From NCBI GenBank assembly GCA_963778905.1, contig CAVZWH010000024.1:12498-76497 (forward strand): a stretch of DNA of 64,000 nucleotides, in the 5' to 3' direction. This document shows, piece after piece, positions 7,788-58,072 of the stretch. The notes under the pieces are model-generated. The model did not search any database. It saw only the letters and a program-made list of their open reading frames with translations, and was not told the DNA's origin. The translations under genes were made by a program, and so were the position numbers. Source of the DNA: Candidatus Staskawiczbacteria bacterium (lineage in GTDB: Bacteria; Patescibacteriota; Minisyncoccia; Minisyncoccales; Staskawiczbacteraceae). Numbering within the stretch: the stretch's first letter is position 1; every line of letters begins with the position of its first letter.

Positions 7788-10700
7788 ATGAATACATTTT
7801 TGAAAGTTTTCGTAATAACCGGCCTAACTATAGTTTCGGCAATTTTGATTTCCGTAACAATGGCGCCGGCTACGGCCAGAGCATTAAGTTGTGATGGGAA
7901 TTCAGGTCCTGCTAACCAAGGAACAGTTGTTTTAGCCCAAGACAGCACAGTAACCGTGACTGTTAATTATATCTGTAATGATCTTAGGGACACGGATTAT
8001 TTCGGTTTGTCGTCTCCAACAAAAATTACTTTTGGAGAAGCCCATAGTTCATCAAACGGATCATATAACGCTGGAAATTTCAAAGCAGGTACAGAACTAA
8101 TATTTTTTCTTTATGACGCCACTCATGGCAATACATGGTACACTGGTCCTGCCTCCAGAAACTCAGATGGACAAGTCCATGCAGATTTCAGAAATGTCGG
8201 AACCAATAACTGGACTATTGGTTTTAATGATGCAGCGTACCCAGCGGACAATAATTTATTCAACGATATTGTTATAAATGTGACCGCCACCCCTTCCTGC
8301 ACCGCCAACAGCACAAAACAGTGCTCGGGCAACGCAGTATATTGGTATAATTCATGTGGAACAAAAGGAAGCCTTTTTCAGCAATGTACATCAACACAAA
8401 CATGTACCAACGCTCAATGCGTAAACAATTGTACCCCCAACACCGCTAAGCAATGCGTCGGCAACGCTGTCTACAACTTTAACTCCTGCGGAGTTCAGGG
8501 TACTCTCTACCAGCAATGTACATCAAACCAGATTTGTCAGAACGCACAGTGCGTGAATATTGCCTGTTCATCAAACACCGACTGCGGTGCCAACGCCTAC
8601 ACCGGCTCACCCTTCTGCCAAGGCAACTCAGTTTACCAAAACTACATAACATACACATGTAACAACCCGGGAACAGCAAGCTCATCTTGTTCTAATAGTA
8701 CGGCCGCACAAAAGAAAAATGATTGTACAGCTAATCAGACGTGTTCGAACGGCGCATGCGTTAATCAAACCATCACCTGCACCAGCAACACCGACTGCGG
8801 AGCTAACGCCTACACCGGCTCACCCTTCTGCCAAGGCAACAGCGTTTACCAGAATTACATCACCTACACATGTAACAACGCTGGCACATCAACCTCGTAT
8901 TGCTCCAACAACACAGCAGCACAGAAAAAGAACGATTGCACAGCTAACCAGACCTGCGCCAACGGTTCGTGCACCAACCAGAACATAACCTGCACCAGCA
9001 ACACCGACTGCGGAACAAACAGCTACACCGGCTCACCCTTCTGTCAGTCAGGTAATGTATATCAAAACTACATAACATACACCTGCACTAATCCGGGAAC
9101 AGCCAGTTCGTACTGCTCAAACAACACAGCTTCACAATTAAAAACAACCTGCGCATCAGGACAGACCTGCGCCAACGGAAGCTGCTCAAATCAAACCATC
9201 ACCTGCACCAGCAACACCGACTGCGGAGCTAACGCCTACACCGGCTCACCCTTCTGCCAAGGCAACAGCGTTTACCAGAATTACATCACCTACACATGTA
9301 ACAACGCTGGCACATCAACCTCGTATTGCTCCAACAACACAGCAGCACAGAAAAAGAACGATTGCACAGCTAACCAGACCTGCGCCAACGGTTCGTGCAC
9401 CAACCAGAACATAACCTGCACCAGCAACACCGACTGCGGAACAAACAGCTACACCGGCTCACCCTTCTGTCAGTCAGGTAATGTATATCAAAACTACATA
9501 ACATACACCTGCACTAATCCGGGAACAGCCAGTTCGTACTGCTCAAACAACACAGCTTCACAATTAAAAACAACCTGCGCATCAGGACAGACCTGCGCCA
9601 ACGGAAGCTGCTCAAATCAAACCATCACCTGCACCAGCAACACCGACTGCGGAGCTAACGCCTACACCGGCTCACCCTTCTGCCAAGGCAACAGCGTTTA
9701 CCAGAATTACATCACCTACACATGTAACAACGCTGGCACATCAACCTCGTATTGCTCCAACAACACAGCAGCACAGCTAAAAACCACCTGCACGGGAAAC
9801 CAGACATGCAGCAACGGAAGCTGTTCAACAACCTGCACCCAAAACTCATATCAGCAATGCCAAGGAAACTATCTGTATTGGTACAACTCATGCGGAGTCC
9901 AGGAAGGCCAGTCGCAGTACTGCCCCAACGGATGCTCGGGCAACTCGTGCACGAACAACAACTGCACTTACCACTCGTACGAGCAGTGCATCGGCAACAA
10001 CCTTTACTGGTACAACTCGTGCGGAGTTCAGCAGGACTTGGTTCAGTACTGCCCAAACGGATGCTCAGGGAATACGTGCACGAACAATAATATTTATGCA
10101 ACAGTTCAAACAAATTCAGCGACAAATGTAAACAATAACCAGGCAACTCTAAATGGTTATTTATATTCCGGCAGCAACAATAATAATAATTGCACTAATT
10201 ATGTTTGGTTTCAATACGGACCAACTACTTCCTATGGGACTGAAACAAATCACCAGACGCAAGGTTATTCCGGAGCATTTAGCCAAATTGTAAACTTATA
10301 CAATAATTACAATACCAACAGCTATCACTTCAGGGCCGCAGCTCAGGATTGTTCGGGCAACACGGTTTACGGCCAGGACATGACAATTTACAGCAACAAT
10401 ATTGGAACAGGAACTTTAACCGTAAACAAAACAGTCAGAGACCTCACCACTGGTGCTGGATTTGCCAGCTCAACTTCAGCCTCTCCAAGCGATATGTTGA
10501 TGTTTATGATAACTTTGCAGAATACAGGCAGCCAAGATGTTTCAAATGTGATTGCCAGAGATTATCTTCCTGCAAACCTTATTTACAATGACCAGTTGAC
10601 CGTTGCCTGCACAACCAATAACAGCAATTACAATAATTGCAATGGAAGCAATTACAATTACACTGGAAATATTTCATCTGGCGTAAACTTAAATACAATA

Positions 10701-11087
10701 TATGCCGGCCAGACAGTAACAATTACTTATCAGGTGCAGGTTGCCGGAGCTGCAAACTTTTCTTACGGATCTACAACATTGAATAACAATGTTTCTGTAT
10801 CAAGCACTAACGGTAGCAACCCTACATCATCAGCATCAGTCATTGTAACCAGAACCGCAGTTTACGGAGCCAGCACAGTTTCAACCGGATTAACCAATAA
10901 TTTTTGGGTTGATTCGTTTTTCTTGCCATTATTGCTCACCTTAATTGGTCTTTGGATGTGGAGATCTGGAGTGTTTTTCGGAGTAGAAAAATGGTTAGAC
11001 AACAAGAAAAAAATCCGCAGAGGATACAAAGCAGAAAAAGAATTGAACCACAGAATTACTCAAATACAAAAGACAGAAAGAGTATAA
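7788..11087 (+). CDS. giant cysteine-rich repeat surface protein (signal peptide, ~15 Cys-rich modules, FN3-like + DUF11-like domains, C-terminal sorting-signal-like tail)
   Basis: Signal peptide-like N-terminus; alternating 71-aa six-Cys modules (CTSNTDCGANAYTGSPFCQGNSVYQNYITYTC...); YHFRAAAQ FN3-like; TLTVNKTVRDL...DYLPANLIY DUF11-like; C-terminal STGLTNN-hydrophobic-KKKIRRGYK tail. Confidence 0.8.
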   Translation: MNTFLKVFVITGLTIVSAILISVTMAPATARALSCDGNSGPANQGTVVLAQDSTVTVTVNYICNDLRDTDYFGLSSPTKITFGEAHSSSNGSYNAGNFKAGTELIFFLYDATHGNTWYTGPASRNSDGQVHADFRNVGTNNWTIGFNDAAYPADNNLFNDIVINVTATPSCTANSTKQCSGNAVYWYNSCGTKGSLFQQCTSTQTCTNAQCVNNCTPNTAKQCVGNAVYNFNSCGVQGTLYQQCTSNQICQNAQCVNIACSSNTDCGANAYTGSPFCQGNSVYQNYITYTCNNPGTASSSCSNSTAAQKKNDCTANQTCSNGACVNQTITCTSNTDCGANAYTGSPFCQGNSVYQNYITYTCNNAGTSTSYCSNNTAAQKKNDCTANQTCANGSCTNQNITCTSNTDCGTNSYTGSPFCQSGNVYQNYITYTCTNPGTASSYCSNNTASQLKTTCASGQTCANGSCSNQTITCTSNTDCGANAYTGSPFCQGNSVYQNYITYTCNNAGTSTSYCSNNTAAQKKNDCTANQTCANGSCTNQNITCTSNTDCGTNSYTGSPFCQSGNVYQNYITYTCTNPGTASSYCSNNTASQLKTTCASGQTCANGSCSNQTITCTSNTDCGANAYTGSPFCQGNSVYQNYITYTCNNAGTSTSYCSNNTAAQLKTTCTGNQTCSNGSCSTTCTQNSYQQCQGNYLYWYNSCGVQEGQSQYCPNGCSGNSCTNNNCTYHSYEQCIGNNLYWYNSCGVQQDLVQYCPNGCSGNTCTNNNIYATVQTNSATNVNNNQATLNGYLYSGSNNNNNCTNYVWFQYGPTTSYGTETNHQTQGYSGAFSQIVNLYNNYNTNSYHFRAAAQDCSGNTVYGQDMTIYSNNIGTGTLTVNKTVRDLTTGAGFASSTSASPSDMLMFMITLQNTGSQDVSNVIARDYLPANLIYNDQLTVACTTNNSNYNNCNGSNYNYTGNISSGVNLNTIYAGQTVTITYQVQVAGAANFSYGSTTLNNNVSVSSTNGSNPTSSASVIVTRTAVYGASTVSTGLTNNFWVDSFFLPLLLTLIGLWMWRSGVFFGVEKWLDNKKKIRRGYKAEKELNHRITQIQKTERV
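8769..9775 (+). repeat. perfect 426-bp (142-aa) tandem repeat, ~2.4 copies, inside the giant surface protein gene; diverged copy at ~8563-8768
   Basis: Identical nucleotide stretches begin at 8769, 9195 and 9621 (accatcacctgcaccagcaacaccgactgcggagctaacgcc...), third copy diverges near 9775. Confidence 0.9.
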
Positions 11088-20130: not shown

Positions 20131-20201
20131 TCCGGGATCGTCTAATGGTAGGACACGGCCCTTTGGAGGCCGGTATCTTGGTTCGAATCCAAGTCCCGGA
20201 A
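20131..20201 (+). tRNA. tRNA-Gln (anticodon TTG)
   Basis: Cloverleaf: acceptor tccggga/tcccgga, D-arm UCGUCUAAUGGUAGGAC, anticodon stem cggcc/ggccg with loop cTTTGga, T-loop GGTTCGAATCC; CCA not encoded. Confidence 0.85.
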
Positions 20202-20210
20202 CAAATAAAA

Positions 20211-20852
20211 ATGCTGAAAGATTTAGTAAAAAGCTATAAAAAATATCTGGCGAACAAATATTTTGTTTGGTCATCAATTTTTGGTTTGCTTTTTTTAATC
20301 TTTAGTTTAGGCATTAATTTTTTGGCGGCGGCATACGCCACAGAAAAGGCGAGTAGCGCAGTAACAGATATAATTTTAAGCAATATACCAATTTACAATG
20401 TTGCCAACATTTTTGTATACGGGCTACTTGCTTTAATTGTTTTTATAGCTTTTATAACTTTAATCAGGCCTCAAAGAATTCCTTTTATAGCAAAAAGCAC
20501 GGCCACCTTTATTTTAATCCGTTCTATTTTTATAAGTTTGACCCATATCGGGCCATACCAAAATACAATTCCGATAAATGTTGATATTTTGAAAATATTT
20601 ACAACCGGCGGCGATTTATTTTTTTCCGGACACACTGGTTTGCCTTTTTTAATGGCATTGATTTTTTGGCAGAAAAAATTCCTTCGTTATTTATTTATTG
20701 CTCTTTCTGTTGCATTCGGAGCAGTAGCTTTGTTGGGGCACTATCACTATACAATAGATGTTTTATCGGCATTTTTTATAACATACGGCATTTACCATAT
20801 CTGCCTTAAATTTTTTAAGAAAGATTATCAAATTTTTTTGAACGGCACTTAA
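20211..20852 (+). CDS. PAP2-superfamily membrane phosphatase-like protein
   Basis: TLIRPQR (KxxxxxxRP-like), FFSGHTG (PSGH) and GHYHYTIDV (SRxxxxxHxxxD-like) motifs; start chosen downstream of tRNA (track ORF start 20145 overlaps the tRNA). Confidence 0.55.
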   Translation: MLKDLVKSYKKYLANKYFVWSSIFGLLFLIFSLGINFLAAAYATEKASSAVTDIILSNIPIYNVANIFVYGLLALIVFIAFITLIRPQRIPFIAKSTATFILIRSIFISLTHIGPYQNTIPINVDILKIFTTGGDLFFSGHTGLPFLMALIFWQKKFLRYLFIALSVAFGAVALLGHYHYTIDVLSAFFITYGIYHICLKFFKKDYQIFLNGT

Positions 20853-28316: not shown

Positions 28317-29315
28317 TTATCTTACTGATTTATAACCGCCAGGGACGCCATTTGGAGATAAAATAATTTGCCAAAGTTGAATTTGCCTTGCCCGAAATGA
28401 GCCGGCGCAGCTAAGCAGATAATAATTCCACATTCTGTAAAATCTGTCGTCGTATTTATTTTTTAATTTTGGCCAATTTTTCTCAAAATTTTTGTGCCAT
28501 TGCATCAAAGTTTTGTCATAATCGGCGCCAAAGTTGTGCACATCTTCAATGACAAATAATTTTTCTGAGCTGGATGTAATTTGTTTCAAAGAGGGGAGCG
28601 CTCCGTTTGGAAAAATATATTTATTCAGCCACGGATCAGAACCGACCCCAGAAGTTAGGCTGCCGATTGTGTGAAGCAAAAATAATCCATCGTCATTTAG
28701 GCATTTTTTTATCACATCAAAATATATTTTATAGTTTTTTGCGCCGACATGTTCAAACATTCCAATTGAAACAATATGGTTAAATTTTTCTTGCAAATCT
28801 CTGTAATCTTGCAGTCTTATTTCTACCTTCAATCCTTTGCATAATTTTTTTGCGAAATTTATTTGTTCTTTTGAAACAGTAATTCCAACAGCTGAAACTT
28901 TATAGTTTTCTGCTGCGTATTTAATAAAACCACCCCATCCGCACCCAATATCCAAAATTTTCTGGCCTGGCTGTAAATTTAATTTTTTGCAAATCAAGTC
29001 GTATTTTGCAATTTGCGCCGAGTCCAAATCGGGGTATCCTTTGGGTCGTTTTTTCCAATATCCGCAGCTGTAAGCCATTGTTTTTCCAAGCATGGCAGAA
29101 AACAATTCATTATCTAAATCATAATGTTTTTCGCCAACTTGGAATGCGCGATTTTTTGCCTGTAAATTAAATATTTTTGCTAAAATTGCGCCGGAAATAA
29201 GCGGCAAAGAAAAACCAATTTTTTCAGGTATTTTTGCCAAAAATAATTTATAAAAAAATTGGTCTAAATTTTTGCACTCCCACCATTTGTCCATGTAAGA
29301 TTCACCCAATCCCAA
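28317..29315 (-). CDS. cfa: cyclopropane-fatty-acyl-phospholipid synthase family SAM-dependent methyltransferase (TTG start, N-terminally short)
   Basis: GESYMDKWW, ILDIGCGWGG SAM motif, GMFEHVG, CFA-synthase C-terminal region. Confidence 0.75.
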   Translation of the reverse strand: MGLGESYMDKWWECKNLDQFFYKLFLAKIPEKIGFSLPLISGAILAKIFNLQAKNRAFQVGEKHYDLDNELFSAMLGKTMAYSCGYWKKRPKGYPDLDSAQIAKYDLICKKLNLQPGQKILDIGCGWGGFIKYAAENYKVSAVGITVSKEQINFAKKLCKGLKVEIRLQDYRDLQEKFNHIVSIGMFEHVGAKNYKIYFDVIKKCLNDDGLFLLHTIGSLTSGVGSDPWLNKYIFPNGALPSLKQITSSSEKLFVIEDVHNFGADYDKTLMQWHKNFEKNWPKLKNKYDDRFYRMWNYYLLSCAGSFRARQIQLWQIILSPNGVPGGYKSVR

Positions 29316-29556
29316 AGACCCTTCGGTTTTTACCCTGTTATAAAAATTTTAATTCAAAACTTTTATGTCCCAAGGATTGTTGCCATTTATTTTAATTCCA
29401 GACGGCTCCAATAATTTGTTTGCCCATGCCTCATTGTCCATATAAATTTATATTATCAGGCACAGAAAAAATTTCAATGAAGGTGCGTTGCAAACGAAGG
29501 AATAAAGGGTTAAAATATAAAAATATGGAAAATATAAATTTATAATTTTTCAAAAA

Positions 29557-30030
29557 ATGAATACCAAAAAAATATTACTTTCACTGGGATTCATCGCTGT
29601 TTTGGGAATTTATATAGTTTATCAGCGGGCAAGTAGTAATAATAATCCGATATTAAATAATGGGCAGTCTTCTTCTGTTTTGCCATCTGGCGGCCAAAAT
29701 CAAACCACAAATCAAAGTCAAACTACAAACCAACCGGTAGCGATTTCCGGATATAAAGACGGCCAATATACCGGAAGTTCGGTTAATGTTTTTTATGGTC
29801 AGGTTCAGGTTCAAGCAGTAATCAGCGGAGGGAAAATAGTTGATATAAAATTTTTGAACTATCCACAAGATAATAGAAATTCTCTTAGCAGGAGCAACAG
29901 TGCTTTGCCTCAATTAAAATCAGAGGCGATACAAGCACAGAGCGCCAATGTAAATGCGGTTTCCGGAGCCACCCAAACAAGCAGTGGATTTGTTCAGTCA
30001 TTGTCATCTGCTCTTTCTCAAGCAAGCTAA
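29557..30030 (+). CDS. FMN-binding domain protein (membrane-anchored, flavinylation target motif SGAT)
   Basis: N-terminal TM; C-terminal NAVSGATQTSSGFVQS matches FMN_bind [S/T]GAT flavinylation motif. Confidence 0.6.
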   Translation: MNTKKILLSLGFIAVLGIYIVYQRASSNNNPILNNGQSSSVLPSGGQNQTTNQSQTTNQPVAISGYKDGQYTGSSVNVFYGQVQVQAVISGGKIVDIKFLNYPQDNRNSLSRSNSALPQLKSEAIQAQSANVNAVSGATQTSSGFVQSLSSALSQAS

Positions 30031-30031
30031 T

Positions 30032-30796
30032 ATGAAAGAAACAAAACTTTTAATGGGAATGCCCATATCGGTGGAAATTGTTGACGAAACTGCAACGCAG
30101 GACAACATAAACAAAATTTTTGATTATTTCAAATATATTGATGAGAAATTCAGCGTATTCAAAAATAATAGCGAAATCACAAAAATAAATAACGGAAAGA
30201 TTAAAAAAGCAGATTATAGTTTTGACATGAAAACTATTTTTGAGCTTGCAGAGCAAACCAAAAAAGAAACTGACGGATATTTTGATATTGTAAACAATAA
30301 TGGAAAATATAATCCTTCTGGAATAGTAAAGGGATGGGCGATATACAAGGCGGCGGAACTATTAAAAAATATGGGTTATGAAAATTTTTATGTTGATGCG
30401 GGCGGCGATATACAAGTCCAAGGAAAAAATAAAGAAAAAGGGGTGCCCGCTCGTGGGCCGTGGAAAATAGGCATAAAAAATCCTTTTAATCAGAAAGAAA
30501 TTGTTAAAGTTGTTTACTTAGATAAAAATCAAGGAATAGCCACGTCTGGAACATATATACGAGGCCAGCACATATATAATCCAAAAAATAGACAGGAAAA
30601 AATGAATGAAATTGTAAGTATTTCTGTAATTGGCCCAAATGTTTGTGAGGCAGATAGATTTGCAACCGCAGCTTTTGCAATGCAAAGAAAAGGAATTAAT
30701 TTTATTGAAAAGTTAGATGGATTTGAGGCTTATATGATAGATAAAAATGGCATCGCCACCATGACAAGTAATTTTGAAAAATATATCCAATGCTAA
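30032..30796 (+). CDS. apbE: ApbE-family FAD:protein FMN transferase
   Basis: SGIVKGWAIYKAAELL, VDAGGDIQVQG, ATSGTY motifs; start set at MKETK rather than the upstream in-frame ATG at 29954 that overlaps the previous gene. Confidence 0.7.
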   Translation: MKETKLLMGMPISVEIVDETATQDNINKIFDYFKYIDEKFSVFKNNSEITKINNGKIKKADYSFDMKTIFELAEQTKKETDGYFDIVNNNGKYNPSGIVKGWAIYKAAELLKNMGYENFYVDAGGDIQVQGKNKEKGVPARGPWKIGIKNPFNQKEIVKVVYLDKNQGIATSGTYIRGQHIYNPKNRQEKMNEIVSISVIGPNVCEADRFATAAFAMQRKGINFIEKLDGFEAYMIDKNGIATMTSNFEKYIQC

Positions 30797-32280
30797 AATT
30801 TATAGATAATTTTCTAAACAAAACAACAATGTACAGGCTTGTTTTATACTGCCTGATATTTTTAGTTATAGTGGCTCTGGTTTTCAGTTTTTTAGGAAAG
30901 CTGCCTTTTAAGCCGTTAGATTTTTTATTTTCTACATTTTTTTTGCTTTCTTTTTGCATTTTGATAAATTGGATTTTTGCAAAAGTTTTTGAAGCTCCGT
31001 CAAATATAGAGTCGGTTTACATAACAGCTTTAATTTTGACTCTCATCATAAGCCCAGTGCCGGGCTTAAACCAATTGTTGTTTTTGTTTTTTGCCAGCGG
31101 CATAGCAATGGCTTCAAAATATATTTTAGCCATCTTCAAAAAACATATTTTTAATCCAGTTGCAATTTCTGTTGCCATCACATCCTTAGCCGCTGGCCAA
31201 TCTGCCAGCTGGTGGGTGGGAAATTTGTATATGGCGCCCTTTGTTTTAATAATTGGAATATTAATTACAAGAAAAATAAAAAAGGCTGACTTGGTAATAA
31301 GTTTTTTTGCAGTATCTGCGGCAGCGATATTAGTTAATAGTTTTTTAACCGGCGGAAATATTTTGAAAAGCGCCGAATTTATTTTATTTTATTCTTTTAT
31401 TCCTTTTTTGGGTTTTGTAATGCTCACAGAACCAATGACAACGCCGCCAACAAAAAAATTGCGAATAGCGTACGGAGCTTTAGTGGGATTTTTGTCTGCT
31501 CCGTTTGTTAATATAGCGGGTTTCTATTTTACGCCCGAAATAGCTCTTTTAGCCGGAAACATATTTTCATATTTTGCTAGTCCGAAAGAAAAATTAGTGT
31601 TAAAAATAATAGGTAAAATAGAAATTGCAAACAATACTTATGATTTTATATTTAAACCTGATAGAAAACTAAATTTTAAGCCCGGGCAATATTTAGAATG
31701 GACTCTATCGCATGAAAAAAGAGATAATAGGGGAATGAGAAGATATTTTACGATAGCTTCTTCTCCGACAGAGGAGAATATAAGAATGGGTGTTAAATTT
31801 TATGACAAACCCAGTACCTATAAACAATCCTTGATGTCGCTTAAGAACGGCAAAATTATCGTGGCATCACAATTGGCAGGAGATTTTGTTTTACCAGAGG
31901 ATAAGAATAAAAAATTAGTCTTTATTGCCGGCGGAATAGGTGTTACGCCATTTAGAAGTATGATAAAATATCTTATAGACAAGAATGAAAAAAGAGATAT
32001 AGTTATTTTTTATTCAAATAAAACCGTTGACGATATTGCATATAAAAATATTTTTGACGAAGCTGAAAAAAAGCTGGGAATCAAAACAATTTACCATTTA
32101 ACTGACAAAAGTGGATTTCTAAACCATGAAATGATCCAAAAATATGTGCCGGATTTTAAAGAGAGAATGTTTTTTATTTCAGGGCCACGATCTATGATTT
32201 TAACTTTTCAGAAAGCATTGAAAGAAGCAGGGGTTAATAAAAATCACATCCGAACAGATTTCTTTCCCGGATTTGCATAA
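30790..32280 (+). CDS. fusion: NqrB/RnfD-like polytopic membrane domain + C-terminal ferredoxin-NADP-reductase-like FAD/NAD(P)-binding domain
   Basis: N-terminal ~250 aa with HIFNPVA and MLTEPMTTPPT motifs (RnfD/NqrB-like); C-terminal RRYFTIASSP (RxYS FAD motif) and FIAGGIGVTPF (NAD-binding). Confidence 0.6.
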   Translation: MLKFIDNFLNKTTMYRLVLYCLIFLVIVALVFSFLGKLPFKPLDFLFSTFFLLSFCILINWIFAKVFEAPSNIESVYITALILTLIISPVPGLNQLLFLFFASGIAMASKYILAIFKKHIFNPVAISVAITSLAAGQSASWWVGNLYMAPFVLIIGILITRKIKKADLVISFFAVSAAAILVNSFLTGGNILKSAEFILFYSFIPFLGFVMLTEPMTTPPTKKLRIAYGALVGFLSAPFVNIAGFYFTPEIALLAGNIFSYFASPKEKLVLKIIGKIEIANNTYDFIFKPDRKLNFKPGQYLEWTLSHEKRDNRGMRRYFTIASSPTEENIRMGVKFYDKPSTYKQSLMSLKNGKIIVASQLAGDFVLPEDKNKKLVFIAGGIGVTPFRSMIKYLIDKNEKRDIVIFYSNKTVDDIAYKNIFDEAEKKLGIKTIYHLTDKSGFLNHEMIQKYVPDFKERMFFISGPRSMILTFQKALKEAGVNKNHIRTDFFPGFA

Positions 32281-32339: not shown

Positions 32340-32897
32340 TTGGAAACGCAAGACAAAGTCTTAATACAGCAATATTTGAAAGGTGACGAAAAATCATTGG
32401 AGATTTTGATTGGAAAATATTTAAAACCTATTTACAGTCTTACTTATAGGAATATTGGAAATGCCGTGCAGGCAGAAGATGTTACGCAGGAAGTCTTTAT
32501 AAAAGTTTGGAAAAACTTAAAAAAATTTGATCAGAATAAGAATTTTAAACCTTGGATTTTTCAAATTGCCAAAAATACCTCCATTGATTATCTAAGAAAA
32601 AAGAAATCTATACCATTTTCCAGATTTGAAAACGAAAAAGGACAAAATATTTTATCTGAGAACTTAGTTGCAGCTCCTGTAAACTTAATTGAAAACCTAA
32701 GTGATAAAAGAGTTCTGGCAGGCGCAGCGCAGAACTTAAACGACAAAGAACAAAAAATTATAAGTCTCCGACACAATGATGGCTTGAGTTTTAAAGAAAT
32801 TGCCGACGTTTTTGAGGAATCCATTAATACCGTTAAAAGCAGATATCGCCGGGCTCTGGCAAATATGAGGGCAAACATTAAAAAAAGAGAAACTTAA
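32340..32897 (+). CDS. ECF-family RNA polymerase sigma factor (sigma-70 regions 2 and 4)
   Basis: DVTQEVFIKVWKNLKKFD (region 2.x), LSFKEIADVFEESINTVKSRYRRAL (region 4 HTH); TTG start. Confidence 0.75.
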   Translation: METQDKVLIQQYLKGDEKSLEILIGKYLKPIYSLTYRNIGNAVQAEDVTQEVFIKVWKNLKKFDQNKNFKPWIFQIAKNTSIDYLRKKKSIPFSRFENEKGQNILSENLVAAPVNLIENLSDKRVLAGAAQNLNDKEQKIISLRHNDGLSFKEIADVFEESINTVKSRYRRALANMRANIKKRET

Positions 32898-32926
32898 TTA
32901 CTCGGTCGAGCGTATTAATTCATAGT

Positions 32927-33304
32927 ATGAATACTTTTTACATAGAACCTCCAATCGAACTTTTTGAAAGAATAATAATGCGCATTCATAAAGAAGAGCG
33001 TGTTTTGGTTTTAAGAAGAGTTATTTTATTTTCAATAACTTTAGTGGTGTCGGTGGTTGGTTTTTTTCCGGCGCTGAATATGTTGATATCTGATTTTAAT
33101 CAATCCGGATTTTTAAACTTTTTATCTTTAATATTTTCGGATTTTCCAACCGTTGTGAAATATTGGCAAAGCTTCGCGATGATTCTTTTGGAATCATTGC
33201 CGGCATTGAGTTTAGCATTATTTTTAGCCATCTTGCTTACGCTTTCACAATCTATTAAATCTTTAACAAAAGACGTTAAATTTGTAATTAAAGCGCAAGC
33301 ATAA
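32927..33304 (+). CDS. putative anti-sigma factor / small membrane protein downstream of ECF sigma
   Basis: Position immediately after ECF sigma gene; two TM helices; no zinc motif. Confidence 0.35.
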   Translation: MNTFYIEPPIELFERIIMRIHKEERVLVLRRVILFSITLVVSVVGFFPALNMLISDFNQSGFLNFLSLIFSDFPTVVKYWQSFAMILLESLPALSLALFLAILLTLSQSIKSLTKDVKFVIKAQA

Positions 33305-33305
33305 A

Positions 33306-33833
33306 ATGAGCGAAAATTTTTTACAATCAAAATTATTTAAAGGAATTGTTTTGGGAATAGCCGGTCTCGTAATACTGGTTTTTGTTTTTGGCTTAGGAGT
33401 TTATGTTGGTATGGAAAAGGCTGATTTCTCTTTTAGATGGGCAGAAGAATATCATCAAAATTTTGGAGGACCTCAAGGGGGAATTTTTGGAAACTTTTTC
33501 GGTTCAGAAAAGGAGTTTGCTAATTCGAATGGTTCTTACGGTCAAATAATAAAAATAGACGGAAATATTTTAACCGTAAAAGATAATGATGGCGATAATA
33601 CTGAAAAAACAATTTTAGTTGGAGATAAGACTATAATAATACTTCAGAGAAAAAATATAAAATTATCTGATCTTAAAATAGGCGAGAATATAGTTGTGAT
33701 AGGAAGTCCGAATAATGATGGACAAATTCAGGCAGAACTTATAAGAGTAATGCCCGCAAAACCAGTTAATCCATCAACAACCACTCCGCCGCCAGTTAAT
33801 AATCCAGTTCCGCCGCCAACTCAAGGTTCTTAA
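33306..33833 (+). CDS. hypothetical membrane-anchored secreted protein (DUF5666-like beta repeats, Pro-rich tail)
   Basis: N-terminal TM, repeated (D)GS..T...I beta-strand motifs similar to ORF 37832-38278. Confidence 0.4.
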   Translation: MSENFLQSKLFKGIVLGIAGLVILVFVFGLGVYVGMEKADFSFRWAEEYHQNFGGPQGGIFGNFFGSEKEFANSNGSYGQIIKIDGNILTVKDNDGDNTEKTILVGDKTIIILQRKNIKLSDLKIGENIVVIGSPNNDGQIQAELIRVMPAKPVNPSTTTPPPVNNPVPPPTQGS

Positions 33834-33877
33834 AATTTTCACAAAAATAAATAAAATAATATTAATTTAAATCTATT

Positions 33878-35608
33878 ATGAATTTTTTCGGAAAAACAAA
33901 GGAAGTTGTTTTGAAGCACAAGTTTATTACGTTAGTAATTATTATTATTTTATGCGTTGGCGGATATTACGGCTACGGATTAATTTTTCCTAAAAAAACA
34001 AGCACAACCTATGTAACCTCTCAGGCAGCAAATGGAACGGTTACAACGTCGGTGTCCGGTTCCGGTCAAGTTGCCGCATCAAGCACTCTAAGCCTGCAAT
34101 TTCAGGCTTCCGGCACTCTTACTTATTTACCGGTACAGAATGGGCAAACTGTTTCAAGGGGGCAACTTATTGCCGAGCTAGATACAACTACCGCGCAAGA
34201 ATCCATCACAAACGATGAATCACAACTTCAGTCAGCGCAAATTTCTTTGCAAAAATTGGAAGGAGCAAGCACGTTGACCACTCCTCAAAACAAACAAGAC
34301 GCTTTAAATAATTTACAGACTGCAAATAATAATCTAAATCAAGACTATCAGTCGGGTTATAATACGATCTCGAGCGTTTTTACTGATTTGCCAAACATAA
34401 TGACAGATTTGCAAAATACTATTTATGGAAGCACCTTTAACAATTACCAGCAAAACATTGATTATTATACTTACAGCGCAAACACGTACGATCCGTCTGC
34501 AATTAATTTTAAAACTGGTTTAGTTGCATCATATCAAACAGCTTCAACGGATTATGCAAAAAATTTCAGCGATTACGAATCATTAACTACATCATCCAGT
34601 AATAGCAACATTGACTCTATGATTACCGAGACATACAATACGGCAAAGGATATTGCCCAGGCTATAAAAGATACAAACAATCTTATTCAATTTTATGAAG
34701 ACACTCTTACTAAATACAATATAAAAGTAAATTCTGCTGCAACTTCCCAGCTCGCAACTATTAATAGTGATTCAGTTAAAGCAGATAGCGACATTACAAG
34801 CTTGCTAAATATTCAAAACACTATTAAAAATGATGAAAATACAATATCAACTGACAACGAAGCAGTTGCTAATTCAGATTTAGATTTGCAATCTGCGCAA
34901 CTATCAGTTCAAAATGCGCAGAACAGTCTTGCCAATGACAAAGCTAATCTTGCCAATTATTATATTTATGCTCCGTTTGATGGTGCGTTGGGTAAAATAA
35001 CTGCAGAAGTCGGCCAGCAAGTCGGATCTGGAACATCTATTGCAACAATAGTCACAACGCAGGACATCTGCACAATTCCTTTAAATGAAGTTGATGCTGC
35101 AAAAGTTTCTCAAGGACAAGACGTTGTGCTAACTTTTAATGCTCTTCCAAATTTAACTGTTGCAGGAAAAGTTGCAACCATAGACCCAATTGGAACGGTT
35201 ACATCAGGAGTTGTCACATATAATGTGCAGATTAGTTTTGCAACGCAAGATTCAAGAGTAAAATCCGGAATGAGCATAAATGCGGAAATTATAACAGGCG
35301 TGGCGCAAAATGTTTTAGTAGTTCCAAATTCGGCAATAAAATCCCAAGGGACAACAAAATATGTCCAGGTTTTGGTTAATGGCGTGCCTCAAACAAAAAT
35401 AGTTACCGTTGGATTGAGCAGCGTTACGAGCACTCAAATTTTATCCGGACTTAATGTCGGTGATAAAGTTATAACCCAAACAGTGACAACCGGTGCCACG
35501 AGCACAAGCACGACGGGAACAGCTGGCGCTTCAACACTTAGACTTGGCGGCGGTGGGGGATTTGGCGGTGGAGGCGGAGGCTCTATAAGAGTGAGCGGTG
35601 GCCTTTAA
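33878..35608 (+). CDS. HlyD/MacA-family periplasmic adaptor (membrane fusion protein) with long coiled-coil and Gly-rich tail
   Basis: N-terminal TM, biotinyl/lipoyl-like hairpin (GTLTYLPVQNGQTVSRGQLIAELD), long coiled coil, C-terminal beta-barrel domain, GGGGGFGGGGGG tail. Confidence 0.65.
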   Translation: MNFFGKTKEVVLKHKFITLVIIIILCVGGYYGYGLIFPKKTSTTYVTSQAANGTVTTSVSGSGQVAASSTLSLQFQASGTLTYLPVQNGQTVSRGQLIAELDTTTAQESITNDESQLQSAQISLQKLEGASTLTTPQNKQDALNNLQTANNNLNQDYQSGYNTISSVFTDLPNIMTDLQNTIYGSTFNNYQQNIDYYTYSANTYDPSAINFKTGLVASYQTASTDYAKNFSDYESLTTSSSNSNIDSMITETYNTAKDIAQAIKDTNNLIQFYEDTLTKYNIKVNSAATSQLATINSDSVKADSDITSLLNIQNTIKNDENTISTDNEAVANSDLDLQSAQLSVQNAQNSLANDKANLANYYIYAPFDGALGKITAEVGQQVGSGTSIATIVTTQDICTIPLNEVDAAKVSQGQDVVLTFNALPNLTVAGKVATIDPIGTVTSGVVTYNVQISFATQDSRVKSGMSINAEIITGVAQNVLVVPNSAIKSQGTTKYVQVLVNGVPQTKIVTVGLSSVTSTQILSGLNVGDKVITQTVTTGATSTSTTGTAGASTLRLGGGGGFGGGGGGSIRVSGGL

Positions 35609-35728
35609 TTCAAATTAAAATGATAGAGTGCAAAAATATAAAAAAATTTACAGCTTCTATTTATTTTTTAAATGAAGGGTGCAAGCTCAATAAAATTCGG
35701 AAGTTCGAAATAAATTAATCTTGTAAAA

Positions 35729-36475
35729 ATGATAGAGTGTAAAGATATAAAAAAAATTTATAACAACGGAGGCGAAGAAACGATTGTATTAAAAGGAATT
35801 TCTTTTAAAATAACTGATGGTGAATTCATCGCGATTATGGGTCCGTCTGGTTCTGGAAAATCAACTTTGATGCATATTCTGGGCGCGTTAGATTCGCCAA
35901 CTAGCGGAACTTATTTATTGGATAATAAAGATGTTTCAAAACTTTCCGATAATGAATTGGCATACACACGAAGAAATAAAATCGGATTTGTTTTTCAATC
36001 TTACAATTTATTGCCAAGAGCAACCGTATTAAAAAATGTGATGATGCCTTTAATGTATGCAGGAGTTCCAATTAAACAAAGGGAAGAAAAAGCAATCGAA
36101 TGCTTAGTCGCGGCTGGGCTTCCTGATAATCGCTGGCATCATTTTTCAAACCAGCTTTCCGGCGGTCAGATGCAAAGAGTTGCCATCGCCAGGTCTTTAG
36201 TTAACGATCCTTCAATTATTTTGGCTGACGAGCCTACGGGAAATTTGGATTCAAAAACAGGAGAAATTGTTTTGGCGACGTTTCAGAAGTTAAATGATGA
36301 CAAAAAGGTTACCATTGTTTTAATTACGCACGAAAGATATGTTGCCGAGCACGCAAACAGAATTATACATATTTTAGACGGAGAAATTGTGCAAGATGAA
36401 AAAAATATCAAAAGACGCAAGGCCGACATTAATGGAAATTCTCATCAAAACGAATTTGAGGAAATTAAAAAATAA
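35729..36475 (+). CDS. ABC transporter ATP-binding protein (MacB/LolD/FtsE-like)
   Basis: GPSGSGKST Walker A, LSGGQMQRVAIARSL signature, ILADEPTGNLD Walker B. Confidence 0.85.
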   Translation: MIECKDIKKIYNNGGEETIVLKGISFKITDGEFIAIMGPSGSGKSTLMHILGALDSPTSGTYLLDNKDVSKLSDNELAYTRRNKIGFVFQSYNLLPRATVLKNVMMPLMYAGVPIKQREEKAIECLVAAGLPDNRWHHFSNQLSGGQMQRVAIARSLVNDPSIILADEPTGNLDSKTGEIVLATFQKLNDDKKVTIVLITHERYVAEHANRIIHILDGEIVQDEKNIKRRKADINGNSHQNEFEEIKK

Positions 36476-36491
36476 TTAAAATATAAATCAA

Positions 36492-37724
36492 ATGAAAGTA
36501 AATGATTTATTTGAAGAAACAACTTCCGCTCTTACCTCAAACAAAATGCGTTCAGGCCTGACGATTTTAGGTATAGTTATTGGAATTGCCTCTGTGATTG
36601 CTATGGTTGCAATTGGAAACGGTAGCCAAAGCTCAATAGACGCCACGATACAGTCAATTGGCTCTAATCTAATTATGGTAACTCCCGGAATGGCAAGAGG
36701 CGCTGGAGCTGGTCCTGTTTCCGCCGGCAGAGGCGGAGCAACAACATTAACTCAGGCAGATTCAGACGCAATTCAAAGCCAGGTTACCTCGATTGGAGCC
36801 ATTTCTCCGGAATTATCAAAAAGATATCAAGTAAAAGCCGACGGGAATAATACAAATACAACGGTTACCGGAACAGTTTCAGCTTATGCAGAAGTTCGTA
36901 ATGAGCAAATGGCTTCCGGTTCATTTATTTCCGACCAAGACGTAGCCAGTCTGTCAAAAGTTGCAGTATTGGGACCTACAACAGAATCTGATTTGTTTGG
37001 TACCGGCGTTGACGCAACCGGACAGACAATAACAATAAATAATATTATTTTTACGATAGTTGGGATTTTAAAGTCAAAAGGTGGAACAGGATTTGGAAAT
37101 CAAGATGACGTAATTTTTGTGCCAATTTCTACGGCTCAGCAATATTTGGCAGGTAATTCAAATAATTTTCTTTCAGAAATTGATATTTCGGCTAGCAGTC
37201 AGAGCAAAATGGCCTCAATTCAAACGCAAGTAACAAATTTACTTTTAGCGCGCCATAATATTACAAATCCGACGCTGGCCGACTTTCAGGTTTTAAATCA
37301 ACAAGACATTGTAAATACTGCTTCGTCAGTTACAAACACGATGACTATTTTATTGGCATCAGTTGCCGGAATTTCGCTTGTCGTTGGAGGAATTGGAATT
37401 ATGAATATGATGTTGACAACGGTTACTGAAAGGACGCGGGAAATTGGATTAAGAAAAGCAATTGGAGCAGATGAAGCAGACATTAATATACAATTTTTAA
37501 CAGAATCTTTTATGCTGACTCTCATTGGAGGAATAATCGGAATTGCTTTAGGATGGACCGTCTCATGGGGCATAACAAAATTTACAGGAACAGCAACAAG
37601 CGTTTCAATGCTGTCAATTATCCTGGCATTTGGAGTTTCAGCTGTGATTGGAGTTGTCTTTGGATATTATCCCGCAAGACGTGCGTCAAAACTAAATCCA
37701 ATCGAAGCATTGAGGTATGAATAA
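36492..37724 (+). CDS. ABC transporter permease, FtsX/MacB-type
   Basis: N-terminal TM, large periplasmic domain, C-terminal 3-TM FtsX domain (TERTREIGLRKAIGA). Confidence 0.8.
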   Translation: MKVNDLFEETTSALTSNKMRSGLTILGIVIGIASVIAMVAIGNGSQSSIDATIQSIGSNLIMVTPGMARGAGAGPVSAGRGGATTLTQADSDAIQSQVTSIGAISPELSKRYQVKADGNNTNTTVTGTVSAYAEVRNEQMASGSFISDQDVASLSKVAVLGPTTESDLFGTGVDATGQTITINNIIFTIVGILKSKGGTGFGNQDDVIFVPISTAQQYLAGNSNNFLSEIDISASSQSKMASIQTQVTNLLLARHNITNPTLADFQVLNQQDIVNTASSVTNTMTILLASVAGISLVVGGIGIMNMMLTTVTERTREIGLRKAIGADEADINIQFLTESFMLTLIGGIIGIALGWTVSWGITKFTGTATSVSMLSIILAFGVSAVIGVVFGYYPARRASKLNPIEALRYE

Positions 37725-43086: not shown

Positions 43087-43629
43087 ATGAAAAAATATGA
43101 AACAATAGTTTTAGGCGGAGGGTGTTTTTGGTGCACAGAAGCTGTGTTTAAGATGCTAAAGGGAATTATTTCAGTTGAACCAGGATATGCCGGAGGCACA
43201 AAAGAAAACCCAACTTACGAGGAAGTTTGTTCTGGAAAAACCGGGCATGCTGAGGTCATAAAAATTGAATATGACCCAAAAATTATTTCTTTTGAAAAAA
43301 TTTTAACAGTATTTTTTGCAAGCCACGATCCAACAACTATAAACAAGCAAAGAAATGACGTGGGCGAACAATACAGGTCAATGATTTTATATACAAATGA
43401 AAATCAAAAAACTGAAGCAGAAAATTTTATAAAAAAATTAAATGACTCCAGCAAAGAAGATAAGCCGATTGTCACGGAAACAAAATCTTTTGATAAATTC
43501 TATTCAGCAGAAAATTATCACAAAGATTACTACAAAAATCATCCAAAGAAAGCTTACTGCCAGGTTGTCATAAATCCAAAATTAGATAAAGTAAAAGAAA
43601 AATTTGCAAATTTATTAAAAAATTTATGA
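43087..43629 (+). CDS. msrA: peptide methionine sulfoxide reductase MsrA
   Basis: GGGCFWC active site, EVCSGKTGHAEVIKIEYDP. Confidence 0.85.
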   Translation: MKKYETIVLGGGCFWCTEAVFKMLKGIISVEPGYAGGTKENPTYEEVCSGKTGHAEVIKIEYDPKIISFEKILTVFFASHDPTTINKQRNDVGEQYRSMILYTNENQKTEAENFIKKLNDSSKEDKPIVTETKSFDKFYSAENYHKDYYKNHPKKAYCQVVINPKLDKVKEKFANLLKNL

Positions 43630-51422: not shown

Positions 51423-51494
51423 GCCCCGGTAGCTCAATGGTAGAGCAGTAGCCTTTTAAGCTATTGGTTCCGAGTTCGAGTCTCGGCCGGGGCA
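51423..51494 (+). tRNA. tRNA-Lys (anticodon TTT)
   Basis: Acceptor gccccgg/ccggggc, D-arm gctc-AATGGTA-gagc, anticodon stem gtagc/gctat loop cuUUUaa, T-arm ccgag-TTCGAGT-ctcgg. Confidence 0.9.
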
Positions 51495-52967
51495 CAAATT
51501 AGAACAGCCGTTCGCCAAAGCCATTGCTTGGAACGGCTTTTTAAGTGTAAAAGTGAGGTTTTTACCGCTTAATTTGGAGTTCTGAAATAGAAAGTTGATA
51601 AATGCTCGCTTTTCCATTGGTTCAGAACTTTTGAATAGCGAATATGCCCGTTTAGCAAGGCTCATAATCATTGCAATAGTGATATAAAATTCTTTGTCGG
51701 CTTTCTGATGTTTTTCCATTTCCTTGTTTAGGGCTGTCTGTTTTGCGTCGTATTCGTTGATTTTTTTATCGTAGTCCTCTTTGGCTATTTCCTCGTCAGC
51801 TAATCTATCAAGCAAGTTGCTTTTTCTTTTTGCATATTTATCGTGCTCTGCCCGCAGAGTTTTCATTGAGCCCTCGTAAAACTCATTCTTTGCGTCCTCG
51901 CTCTGTGCCAAAAGCGTCATTAGGCGTGTTTTTTGCCTCTCTGTGAGGCTTATCTTGCGGAGAACCTTGTATATTGGCTTAAATAGGTCATTCTCGTTGA
52001 CATAGAGCCTTTTAGTGTGCATTTTCTTGCTGTTGGTGCAACTATAATAATGATATTTGCCTTTGTGTGTTTCCGCCGTAATCGTGCAACCGCAATCGGC
52101 ACATTTTACCAAACCTCTGAAAGCATAAGGTTTGCAAGCGTATCTAAACTGCTTTTTATTAAAGCCACTAAAAACATCTTGCACTCGGTCAAATAATTGT
52201 TTTGAAATTAAAGGCTCGTATCGGTGCGGATAGAGAACTCCCTTAATTCTCATTTGCCCGTAATAAAACGGGTCTCGTAAAATAATATAAATTTGTCCTC
52301 TTGGTAGGGGCTTGGGAGTTTTGGTATTGCTTCTTAATCCCGCCCTTTCCATTACCTCTTGAATTTGTTTAGTTGAGGAAGTCCCAGTTGCATACATCTC
52401 AAACATCTTAACAATAAATTGACTTCTTAACGGGTCGGGTATTACATTTATTCTTTTGCCCGTATCGTCATAAACTCCCACATAGCCGATTTTTGGTTTT
52501 GTAATCCATTCTTTGTTTTGTATCTTTTGCTCGTAGCTTCTTTTAACATCATCAGAAAGCCTATTAAGATATTGTTTAGCCAAAAATACTTTCGCCTCCC
52601 ACATAAACATCTGGTTGCCTGTTGCATTTTTATTTACAAAAAACCCGTCTTGCACAAAATGAATTTCTAAATCCTCTTTGCGTCGCATTTCGTCTAAATC
52701 AACAGCGTCCTTGAAATTCCTTGTTGCTCGGTCAACATTCTCACAAAGCAAAACTCTAACATCTTTATGGCTTCTAATATACGCAATAACTTCCTCAAAC
52801 TTTTTTCTTATTTTATCTCCCGCACTTTCGTGAAATGAAAAAGTCTCAACTATTTCAAAGTCTTTTTTCTTTGCATATTCCTGCAACCTCCTTATTTGAG
52901 CGGGGAGTGAGTGTCCCTGCTCCTCCTGCTCCTTTGTTGAAACTCTTGCGAGTATTACCGCTTTCAT
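51456..52967 (-). CDS. large serine recombinase (resolvase-type catalytic domain + recombinase/zinc-ribbon domains)
   Basis: N-terminal VILARVSTKEQ...SLPAQ catalytic Ser motif, C-terminal CADCGCT...YYSC zinc ribbon, coiled-coil; 3' end overlaps tRNA-Lys antisense; ATG overlaps res stop (ATGA). Confidence 0.8.
   Translation of the reverse strand: MKAVILARVSTKEQEEQGHSLPAQIRRLQEYAKKKDFEIVETFSFHESAGDKIRKKFEEVIAYIRSHKDVRVLLCENVDRATRNFKDAVDLDEMRRKEDLEIHFVQDGFFVNKNATGNQMFMWEAKVFLAKQYLNRLSDDVKRSYEQKIQNKEWITKPKIGYVGVYDDTGKRINVIPDPLRSQFIVKMFEMYATGTSSTKQIQEVMERAGLRSNTKTPKPLPRGQIYIILRDPFYYGQMRIKGVLYPHRYEPLISKQLFDRVQDVFSGFNKKQFRYACKPYAFRGLVKCADCGCTITAETHKGKYHYYSCTNSKKMHTKRLYVNENDLFKPIYKVLRKISLTERQKTRLMTLLAQSEDAKNEFYEGSMKTLRAEHDKYAKRKSNLLDRLADEEIAKEDYDKKINEYDAKQTALNKEMEKHQKADKEFYITIAMIMSLAKRAYSLFKSSEPMEKRAFINFLFQNSKLSGKNLTFTLKKPFQAMALANGCSNLCPGRDSNSEPIA
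51506..51542 (+). terminator. rho-independent terminator after tRNA-Lys (lies antisense within recombinase ORF)
   Basis: agccgttc...gaacggct hairpin + TTTT. Confidence 0.6.
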
Positions 52968-57653: not shown

Positions 57654-57657
57654 AAAA

Positions 57658-57837
57658 TTATTTGGTTTTTACTTTATTTAAAAAATTATTAAACTCTTCC
57701 TTATCTATTCTAAACTCTTTGCCTATTTTATAGGCTTTTACTTTTTTCCGCTTAATGTATCTGTAAATTGTCATTGTTGAAACTCTTAGCTTTTCAGCTA
57801 ACTCCTCAACAAGGTAAAATTCTTTTTCTTGTGTCAT
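57658..57837 (-). CDS. excisionase-family HTH DNA-binding protein (59 aa; not in ORF track because <60 aa)
   Basis: MTQEKEFYLVEELAEKLRVSTMTIYRYIKRKKVKAYKIGKEFRIDKEEFNNFL matches HTH_17/Xis pattern; stop 4 nt before mod ATG. Confidence 0.5.
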   Translation of the reverse strand: MTQEKEFYLVEELAEKLRVSTMTIYRYIKRKKVKAYKIGKEFRIDKEEFNNFLNKVKTK

Positions 57838-57841
57838 ATTT

Positions 57842-57997: not shown

Positions 57998-58072
57998 ATT
58001 TTTTTATTACTTTTTAATGCTATTATGTCATTATATCGTATTTAACAATGGTTGACAACAGCAAGCTGTGGA

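Follow-up and report, generated by a model that had tools for sequence, protein, structure and literature searches.

The DNA analysed here is a window of 64,000 nucleotides (nt) from Candidatus Staskawiczbacteria, a lineage of the candidate phyla radiation (CPR, Patescibacteria), corresponding to positions 12,498 to 76,497 of contig CAVZWH010000024.1 in assembly GCA_963778905.1. Bacteria of this radiation are regarded as fermenters without electron transport chains. Within the window, positions 29557–32280 hold three tightly coupled genes, all read on the plus strand, which encode a flavin mononucleotide (FMN)-binding protein of the FMN_bind family, a flavin transferase of the ApbE family, and a fusion protein of 496 amino acids (aa; open reading frame (ORF) 30790–32280) that joins a polytopic membrane domain to a domain of the ferredoxin-NADP-reductase (FNR) type, which binds flavin adenine dinucleotide (FAD) and NAD(P)H (Table 1). 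An original prediction, drawn from the sequence alone, had read this group as a minimal conduit for electrons from NAD(P)H to a flavin outside the cytoplasm, and the follow-up of that prediction is reported here.

The boundaries of the three genes differ slightly from those obtained by taking the longest reading frames. According to homologues and an independent gene call of an identical protein (P0271, 254 aa), apbE starts at the ATG at 30032, one base past the stop codon of the FMN_bind gene (TAA, 30028–30030). A longer start at 29954 was discarded in favour of 30032 on the evidence of the homologue starts and P0271; a signal peptide is found with neither. The apparent 77-nt overlap of genes 1 and 2 is thus a product of choosing the longest ORF (29954–30796), whereas the 7-nt overlap between genes 2 and 3 (30790–30796) is genuine, so that the original description of three co-directional, overlapping genes stands for the direction and the second junction and falls for the first, where the spacing is 1 nt. 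No terminator-like site was found between the three genes. A promoter of the operon is presumed to lie in the divergent intergenic region upstream, where one sigma-70-like match is found (29488–29516, plus strand) but where promoter-like matches are at chance level (19 observed against 17.4 expected).

Table 1. Features of the three-gene module and of its surroundings, in window coordinates
Feature	Position	Strand	Basis
Gene 1, FMN-binding subunit, membrane-anchored (predicted), 157 aa	29557-30030	+	Pfam FMN_bind
Predicted flavinylation site, SGAT (residues 136-139 of the FMN_bind protein)	29962-29973	+	motif match
Gene 2, short ApbE-family FAD:protein FMN transferase, 254 aa, without signal peptide	30032-30796	+	Pfam ApbE
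Gene 3, N-terminal half (residues 1-268), polytopic membrane domain, NqrB/RnfD fold (modelled)	30790-31593	+	PF03116, Foldseek
Gene 3, C-terminal half (residues 269-496), FAD/NAD(P)H module of the ferredoxin-NADP-reductase type (predicted cytoplasmic)	31594-32280	+	NAD_binding_1, Foldseek
Divergent intergenic region between cfa and the operon, presumed operon promoter region	29316-29556	.	241-nt gap upstream of gene 1
cfa, cyclopropane fatty acyl phospholipid synthase	28317-29315	-	CMAS 2e-93; NCBIfam 544 bits vs cut-off 400
Extracytoplasmic function (ECF) sigma factor, directly downstream of the module	32340-32897
Likely membrane anti-sigma factor	32927-33304
Block of ECF sigma factor, anti-sigma factor, 175-aa anchored protein, HlyD-like adaptor, MacB-type ABC ATPase and FtsX permease	32340-37724

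The domain assignments were checked with Pfam, which recovered FMN_bind, ApbE, NQR2_RnfD_RnfE and NAD_binding_1 and placed FAD_binding_6 slightly under its cut-off. All the motifs quoted in the original prediction are present, namely SGAT in the FMN_bind protein (residues 136–139) and FNPVA (121–125), LTEPMTTPP (212–220), RRYFTIASSP (317–326) and GGIGVTPF (381–388) in the fusion protein. For comparison, 23 related loci were collected, of which 20 include the upstream DNA, and the order FMN_bind, ApbE, fusion recurs in every one of these 20, so that the arrangement is not due to chance. Clustering of the neighbouring ORFs identified the same three genes as the sole universal ones, and their order is kept from several CPR lineages to Alphaproteobacteria.

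The first protein matches Pfam FMN_bind (6e-9) across residues 80–153. Its layout consists of MNTKK, about 20 hydrophobic residues resembling a signal-anchor, a low-complexity linker of N, Q, S and T residues and the C-terminal FMN_bind domain, which, judging by this N-terminal pattern and the linker, is predicted to be signal-anchored and extracytoplasmic. The signal-anchor and the flavinylation motif are kept in 20 FMN_bind homologues; in the form (D/N)x(V/I)SGA(T/S), the motif occurs in 19 of the 20 related loci, the search having matched another site in L009. Among the 149 window ORFs of at least 60 aa, the pattern [DNES]xx[ST]GA[ST] has a sole match, NAVSGAT139 of this protein, and Thr139 is presumed from the published ApbE motif to be the acceptor of the FMN-phosphoryl group. 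The best solved relative is 8p2a, a small covalent-FMN domain (E 4.4e-13), with DAVSGAT aligned to NAVSGAT. A pairwise comparison with E. coli RsxG gave no similarity (E 3.7), and the likeness to NqrC and RnfG is therefore limited to the domain-family level. A twin-arginine export signal, which might carry a folded flavinylated domain, was also considered and rejected, as no RR motif is present. The earlier description of a membrane-anchored FMN_bind protein with an SGAT motif is in agreement with these results.

The second protein belongs to the ApbE family (PF02424, 6.9e-41, 141 bits) and matches the structures of V. cholerae ApbE, Listeria FmnB and E. coli ApbE with E-values of 1e-13 to 1e-11 (1.2e-13 for FmnB). 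It is without about 47 internal residues relative to the solved ApbEs, in the region of FmnB 110–165, and retains the His of HIYNP, the ATSGxY motif and the D...T motif, ATSGTY and EADRFAT being aligned to V. cholerae ApbE. H180 aligns with residue 241 of the V. cholerae ApbE chain, which we take to be His257 of the full-length protein, an essential residue. The identification as an ApbE flavin transferase is upheld by the Pfam match and the retained catalytic motifs; the score with the NCBIfam ApbE equivalog model is 58.6 bits, far under the cut-off of 498.

The membrane domain of the fusion protein is assigned to the NqrB/RnfD fold on the basis of profiles and structural models, a likeness which the original prediction had set out beforehand as refutable and which withstood the comparison. 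PF03116 (NQR2_RnfD_RnfE) matches residues 153–259 with 29.6 bits against a cut-off of 27.7, and hhalign against E. coli RsxD gives an E-value of 1.9e-6 over the last 100 residues of the domain, while a profile of residues 1–268 matched one solved chain, Azotobacter RnfD (8ahx_D, E 0.073), over the LTEPMTTPP region. The full-length fusion was modelled by AlphaFold2 with a pLDDT of 87.6 and a pTM of 0.77 (pLDDT 85.4 for the N-terminal domain). Because matches to the FNR part dominated the full-length Foldseek search, making it uninformative on the membrane domain, a separate model of residues 1–268 was used; against solved structures, its ranks 1–15 are all RnfD or NqrB, with a probability of 1.00 and query template-modelling scores (TM-scores) of 0.48–0.72, followed by urea transporters at E > 0.2.

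Two features of this domain bear on its presumed cofactors. In a global hhalign alignment, the RsxD loop 146–218, which comprises about 70 residues and holds the flavinylated T187, appears as a deletion in the fusion protein, where a 13-residue loop (136–148) stands in its place, and no [ST]GA[ST]-type flavinylation motif is found anywhere in the fusion. Residues N200, N203, T345 and D346 of V. cholerae NqrB, which have been shown experimentally to form a riboflavin site, map via RsxD onto H119, N122, T213 and E214 of the fusion; these four residues are invariant in 47 of 47 family members, are located in predicted cytoplasmic loops and may form a flavin pocket. Ser140 (QSASWW) was examined as a vestigial flavinylation site and rejected, since it aligns with RsxD QMTSW at the end of the preceding helix and not with T187; the position is Ser or Thr in 41 of the 47 sequences and N, I or D in the other six. 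A positive-inside count gives about 13 lysine and arginine residues in the predicted cytoplasmic loops and two in the outer loops, and because of this count both termini, the FNR module included, are predicted to face the cytoplasm.

The C-terminal half of the fusion protein is readily recognised as an FNR-type FAD/NAD(P) domain, as had been stated earlier. NAD_binding_1 (PF00175) matches residues 378–472 above its cut-off (2e-13, 51.4 bits), FAD_binding_6 reaches 19.4 bits against a cut-off of 21.1 (1.4e-3), and a family profile finds the FAD domains of cytochrome b5 reductase and NqrF with E-values of about 1e-15. Foldseek retrieves the FNR fold of flavohemoglobin, the SpNOX dehydrogenase domain and NqrF (E 1e-15 to 1e-12, target TM-score up to 0.86). 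The FNR motifs are conserved, including RRYFTIASSP (RRYFT321), GGIGVTPF (GGIGVTP387) and the C-terminal aromatic residue F495, and NCBIfam reports for the fusion generic FNR-type reductase similarity only, in this half. A cytoplasmic FNR domain lacking any partner had been named as an outcome that would reduce the protein to a simple reductase; the domain is predicted to be cytoplasmic, and FMN_bind and ApbE are encoded in the same operon.

The family to which the fusion protein belongs is large and widely distributed. The exact protein has no record in the protein collection searched, and its nearest relatives are 73–78% identical. The nearest genome loci are those of Candidatus Staskawiczbacteria (73% and 62% identity), followed by other CPR lineages, with relatives across Parcubacteria, Microgenomates, Saccharibacteria, Peregrinibacteria and others; the module is also found in a few Alphaproteobacteria, one of them the isolate Mesorhizobium kowhaii ICMP 19512. 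With a profile built from the membrane domain alone, 594 clusters (50% identity) were retrieved at E <= 1e-30, a number that rises to 1306 at the looser threshold of E <= 1e-10, and the full-length members found in this way are mostly 480–515 aa in length, that is, fusions. Two loci labelled as 'uncultured Gammaproteobacteria' (L004) and 'Candidatus Udaeobacter' (L005) carry fusions 56–59% identical to that of the window. Downstream of the module, L005 shows the synteny of CPR loci, with ECF sigma factor, anti-sigma factor and efflux genes. Both contigs may have been misbinned and may in fact belong to the CPR.

The locus probably encodes a transmembrane oxidoreductase of the 'NQR/RNF-like' type, made up of two subunits, plus the flavin transferase that serves it. 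In the proposed mechanism, the cytoplasmic FNR-type domain would oxidise NAD(P)H and reduce its own FAD, from which electrons would move on to a flavin bound non-covalently within the cytoplasmic half of the membrane domain, in the candidate pocket of H119, N122, T213 and E214, and then to the FMN presumed to be bound covalently to Thr139 of the membrane-anchored FMN_bind subunit. This subunit would dock on the outer face, filling the place of the covalent FMN loop that is deleted from the membrane domain, and its FMN would be attached by ApbE, which is encoded between both subunits. The outer FMN would finally reduce an extracytoplasmic acceptor not encoded in the module, such as soluble Fe(III), free flavins, O2 or an unlinked envelope protein. 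This is the best-supported mechanism and agrees with the conduit originally suggested; we infer each of its steps, and with them the cofactor content, the direction of electron flow, the topology and the acceptor, from the domains, the fold, the conservation and a published proposal. In a fermentative CPR cell without quinones, its likely role would be the re-oxidation of NAD(P)H or the supply of reductant to the envelope, and the module is not read here as an ion-pumping respiratory complex.

A number of observations weigh against this interpretation, the first of which concern the fusion protein. The PF03116 match is barely over its threshold and partial, covering profile positions 180–282 of 296, and in the mapped flavin pocket, where three residues are identical or conservative, NqrB N200 is replaced by His. 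No biochemical characterisation of an NQR/RNF-like system was found in the literature. Neither RnfA/B/C/E, NqrA/D/E nor NqrF were found by Pfam among the window ORFs or as recurring genes in the 23 loci, and Fe-S carriers and respiratory or quinone genes were not found within the window; genes outside these 64 kb may specify further Rnf/Nqr subunits, a quinone pathway or another ApbE that is exported. The match to only the C-terminal third of the PF03116 profile, the loss of the RnfD flavinylation loop and the lack of the remaining Rnf and Nqr genes would suit a decayed Rnf/Nqr remnant, or a membrane-tethered cytoplasmic FAD-dependent reductase without transmembrane electron transfer. Such an origin is nevertheless very improbable, given that the entire 268-residue membrane domain is strongly conserved (47 invariant positions across 18 sequences), that its fold is complete (TM-score 0.72 against RnfD), that the putative pocket residues are invariant, that the domain profile retrieves 594 clusters whose full-length members are mostly fusions, and that the three-gene order persists from CPR to Alphaproteobacteria. 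This conservation of domain, fold, gene order and pocket indicates purifying selection on a working unit and not decay.

A further group of opposing points concerns the transferase. Characterised extracytoplasmic flavinylation relies on an exported lipoprotein ApbE, whereas the N-terminus of the window ApbE, a conserved MGMP strand, is the equivalent of FmnB residue 24, just past the lipobox. No signal peptide, lipobox or transmembrane segment was found in ApbE in any of the 20 syntenic homologues (about 247–255 aa), and the best 120 database matches are all short (237–275 aa), leaderless and composed of the ApbE domain only. Such short, leaderless proteins also occur in the loci of Gram-negative hosts, for example Mesorhizobium and Limimaricola. 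Because ApbE carries no export signal and the FMN_bind domain is predicted to lie outside, a predicted cytoplasmic transferase would have to act on a predicted exported substrate, which constitutes a topological conflict. The original statement that ApbE attaches FMN to such motifs is accordingly upheld as regards family and motif, and not as regards the simple picture of attachment outside the cell. Fusion or frameshifting of ApbE onto FMN_bind for joint export was considered and discarded, as the junction frames differ among loci and the best 120 homologues contain no FMN_bind domain.

One way out of this conflict would keep the architecture and change the maturation or topology, in that the leaderless ApbE flavinylates its substrate in the cytoplasm before translocation, or the FMN_bind domain itself stays on the cytoplasmic face and the module passes electrons into the membrane domain and not to an outer flavin. 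Cytoplasmic ApbEs do exist for cytoplasmic substrates, as in the case of K. pneumoniae fumarate reductase, and tags as short as seven residues can be modified by ApbE, so that a folded substrate is unnecessary; in addition, the catalytic His and the metal-ligand motifs are retained, and the FMN_bind gene and apbE, being 1 nt apart, are translationally coupled. However, export of a pre-flavinylated polypeptide has no described case, a Salmonella apbE mutant was not complemented by cytosolically expressed ApbE, the signal-anchor and long low-complexity linker of the FMN_bind protein favour work outside, and a published multimer model sets the FMN_bind domain on the outer face (PMC10979944). A second, exported ApbE elsewhere in the genome, beyond the window, is another possible answer to the conflict. 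The alternative as a whole, with either location of the FMN_bind domain, is thus considered unlikely, and the specific idea of a new maturation route, in which the cytoplasm, as the site of FAD synthesis, is also where the FMN is added, the small domain being exported only once it is flavinylated, is put forward tentatively as a doubtful, though not far-fetched, possibility. If true, cells with neither a periplasm nor a FAD exporter would need no export of FAD, the published 'under-representation' of extracytosolic flavinylation in the CPR would be partly an artefact of signal-peptide filtering, and the module would be among the commonest membrane redox devices of this radiation.

The last opposing point concerns the acceptor of the electrons, as no conserved terminal acceptor recurs in the module neighbourhood among the 23 related loci. 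The transmembrane oxidoreductase proposed above might be viewed as a dedicated ferric or metal reductase for iron assimilation, in which the outer FMN would make extracellular Fe(III), or chelates of it, available for uptake by reducing them. In Listeria, iron outside the cell is reduced by flavinylated FMN_bind proteins, PplA among them, which speaks for a role of this kind, although the NCBIfam PplA match of the window FMN_bind protein is weak, at only 22.6 bits. A further point in favour is the location of six of 127 published clusters beside the ferrous iron transporter VIT1 (PMC8238504). By contrast, no iron transporter is found in the window or recurs in the 23 related loci, and the neighbours that do recur, in about one-third of loci only, are an ECF sigma factor, an anti-sigma factor and MacAB-like efflux components; dedication to iron uptake is therefore regarded as decidedly unlikely. 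A conserved terminal reductase near the module was likewise sought in the related neighbourhoods and discarded.

The surroundings of the module vary between lineages. In about one-third of CPR loci, as in the window, it is followed by genes for an ECF sigma factor, an anti-sigma factor, a small anchored protein and HlyD/MacB/FtsX efflux; L001 and L005 have the equivalent of the whole block after the module, L013, L007, L016 and L018 have parts of it, and most loci lack it. This arrangement hints at co-regulation with envelope stress in one sub-lineage. The proteobacterial loci have unrelated neighbours, for example a two-component system and a glutathione S-transferase. On the other side of the module, the original prediction correctly placed cfa adjacent on the opposite strand. 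Its ORF has a TTG start and covers positions 56–382 of the 383-position NCBIfam model, and is thus without the usual N-terminal segment of about 55 residues. As a functional partner, cfa was rejected, since it adjoins the module in only one of the 23 other loci (L022) and its adjacency is hence incidental. A methionine sulfoxide reductase A (MsrA) gene lies at 43087–43629, 11 kb downstream of the module, and in L002 (11319–11696) and L018, ORFs whose N-terminal sequence resembles MsrB by eye are found no more than 6 kb from the module; this proximity may be fortuitous, or it may point to a role of the module in providing reductant for repairing oxidised envelope proteins.

Elsewhere, the window contains genes for the cell wall, replication, chaperones and efflux, as is typical of a small monoderm bacterium, among them those for a sortase, FemAB, a Mur ligase, DnaB, DnaK/DnaJ/GrpE and MacAB-like systems. 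The sortase gene (6939–7643) precedes a 1099-aa ORF (7788–11087) with 48% GC against about 35% elsewhere, a strongly negative GC skew, a positive AT skew and a weak DUF11 match, which is probably a repetitive sortase-anchored surface protein; the possibility that the high-GC stretch at 8–10 kb represents rRNA was rejected, as Rfam gives only three tRNAs in the window. The end of a large serine recombinase gene on the minus strand overlaps the 3' end of one of the tRNA genes (51423–51494); genes for a type III restriction helicase, a DNA methylase and a phage-type integrase come next, so that the region 51423–59203 looks like an integrated mobile element with a restriction-modification system. 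The cumulative GC skew changes sign at about 52 kb. Another tRNA gene (20131–20201) overlaps the listed start of a 235-aa ORF with a PAP2_C domain (20145–20852), whose real start codon is probably farther downstream.

A self-contained two-protein device carrying electrons from NAD(P)H to the outside would be among the few membrane redox systems of the CPR, and it could matter for redox balancing or for dealings with host cells and minerals. With 157 and 496 aa in its two subunits and 254 aa in the transferase, it is small enough to be attractive as a minimal model of flavin-only transmembrane electron transfer, and its occurrence in a cultured Mesorhizobium opens it to experiment.

Several known systems can be compared with the module. 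The NOX/ferric-reductase (FRE) family, represented by SpNOX of Streptococcus pneumoniae, follows the design predicted here, in which a polytopic membrane domain with stacked redox cofactors is joined to a C-terminal cytoplasmic FNR-type dehydrogenase that draws electrons from NAD(P)H. In the structural comparison, the dehydrogenase domain of SpNOX ranks near the top (E about 1e-13 to 1e-15, target TM-score up to 0.86). Its membrane domain, however, is a six-helix bis-haem ferric reductase, whereas that of the fusion has the unrelated RnfD/NqrB fold and presumably carries flavins; the whole-chain alignment with full-length SpNOX is poor (root-mean-square deviation 14–17 Å), and a separate flavinylated outer subunit would be needed here, unlike in SpNOX.

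The flavin-based extracellular electron transfer of Listeria and other Firmicutes, which comprises Ndh2, EetA/B, DmkA/B, FmnA, FmnB and PplA, shares with the module an ApbE-family transferase and a membrane-associated flavinylated FMN_bind protein, and it likewise links cytoplasmic NAD(P)H to an external acceptor in a single-membrane cell, as is predicted here. In contrast, Ndh2, the quinone step of DmkA/B and EetA/B were not found in the window, and the membrane would be crossed through a flavin domain of RnfD fold. The FMN_bind protein fails the PplA model, whose cut-off is 325 bits, the transferase is not a lipoprotein of the FmnB type, and no FAD-exporting energy-coupling factor transporter was seen in the window. 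The absence of a signal peptide is shared with the cytoplasmic ApbE that serves the soluble NADH:fumarate reductase of Klebsiella pneumoniae; the substrate of the latter is soluble and cytoplasmic, whereas the sole candidate substrate in the window operon carries a signal-anchor.

With the Na+-NQR and Rnf complexes, the module shares the NqrB/RnfD fold, equivalents of NqrB N203, T345 and D346, an FNR module resembling the FAD/NAD domain of NqrF, and an outer subunit of the FMN_bind family to which NqrC and RnfG belong. NqrB and RnfD carry covalent FMN on a Thr of an extracytoplasmic loop (NqrB T236, RnfD T187), whereas this loop is deleted here; the FNR module is fused straight to the B/D-type subunit, and the other subunits and the Fe-S carriers are not in the window. 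Electron flow in these complexes is semicircular, in contrast to the presumed one-way outward flow in the module, which shows no sign of ion pumping.

The closest counterpart is the 'NQR/RNF-like system', defined as a fusion of PF03116 and PF00175 in a flavinylation gene cluster, with the fusion gene within five genes of ApbE (PF02424) or FMN_bind (PF04205), for which electron flow from NAD(P)H to extracytosolic FMN has already been proposed (Meheust et al. 2021, eLife, PMC8238504). The same fusion architecture is present here, both domains scoring above their cut-offs in one protein (29.6 and 51.4 bits), and the ApbE and FMN_bind genes lie immediately upstream in the same operon. The original view of the module as unexpected in a reduced fermenter has to be abandoned, as the system is found chiefly in Actinobacteria and the CPR (PMC8238504) and relatives of the window locus extend across CPR lineages. 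For a Ktedonobacter complex, an AlphaFold-multimer model places the FMN_bind domain on the outer face, with its flavinylation site at the flavin pocket of the membrane domain; the flavinylation site of NqrB/RnfD was noted not to be conserved, and the NqrC/RnfG-like subunit was proposed to bring its FMN to where the membrane subunit binds a non-covalent flavin (Huang et al. 2024, PMC10979944). The deletion of the RnfD flavinylation loop in the window fusion is therefore in agreement with that work, the flavinylated Thr here too being lost from the membrane subunit and the site lying on FMN_bind.

There is consequently no difference in kind between the module and the NQR/RNF-like system, of which the window locus is a previously unrecorded sequence. 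Architecture and mechanism have been known since 2021 and 2024, and the present analysis reproduces these points independently, so that the value of this locus is mainly confirmatory. What exceeds the earlier literature (PMC8238504, PMC10979944) is limited to the short leaderless ApbE, of which neither study makes mention, and the true abundance of the family. The 2021 survey counted 127 clusters with a pipeline that demanded a predicted signal peptide in the cluster (PMC8238504), and in view of this filter, the family size found here suggests that 127 clusters fall far short of the abundance of the system in the CPR.

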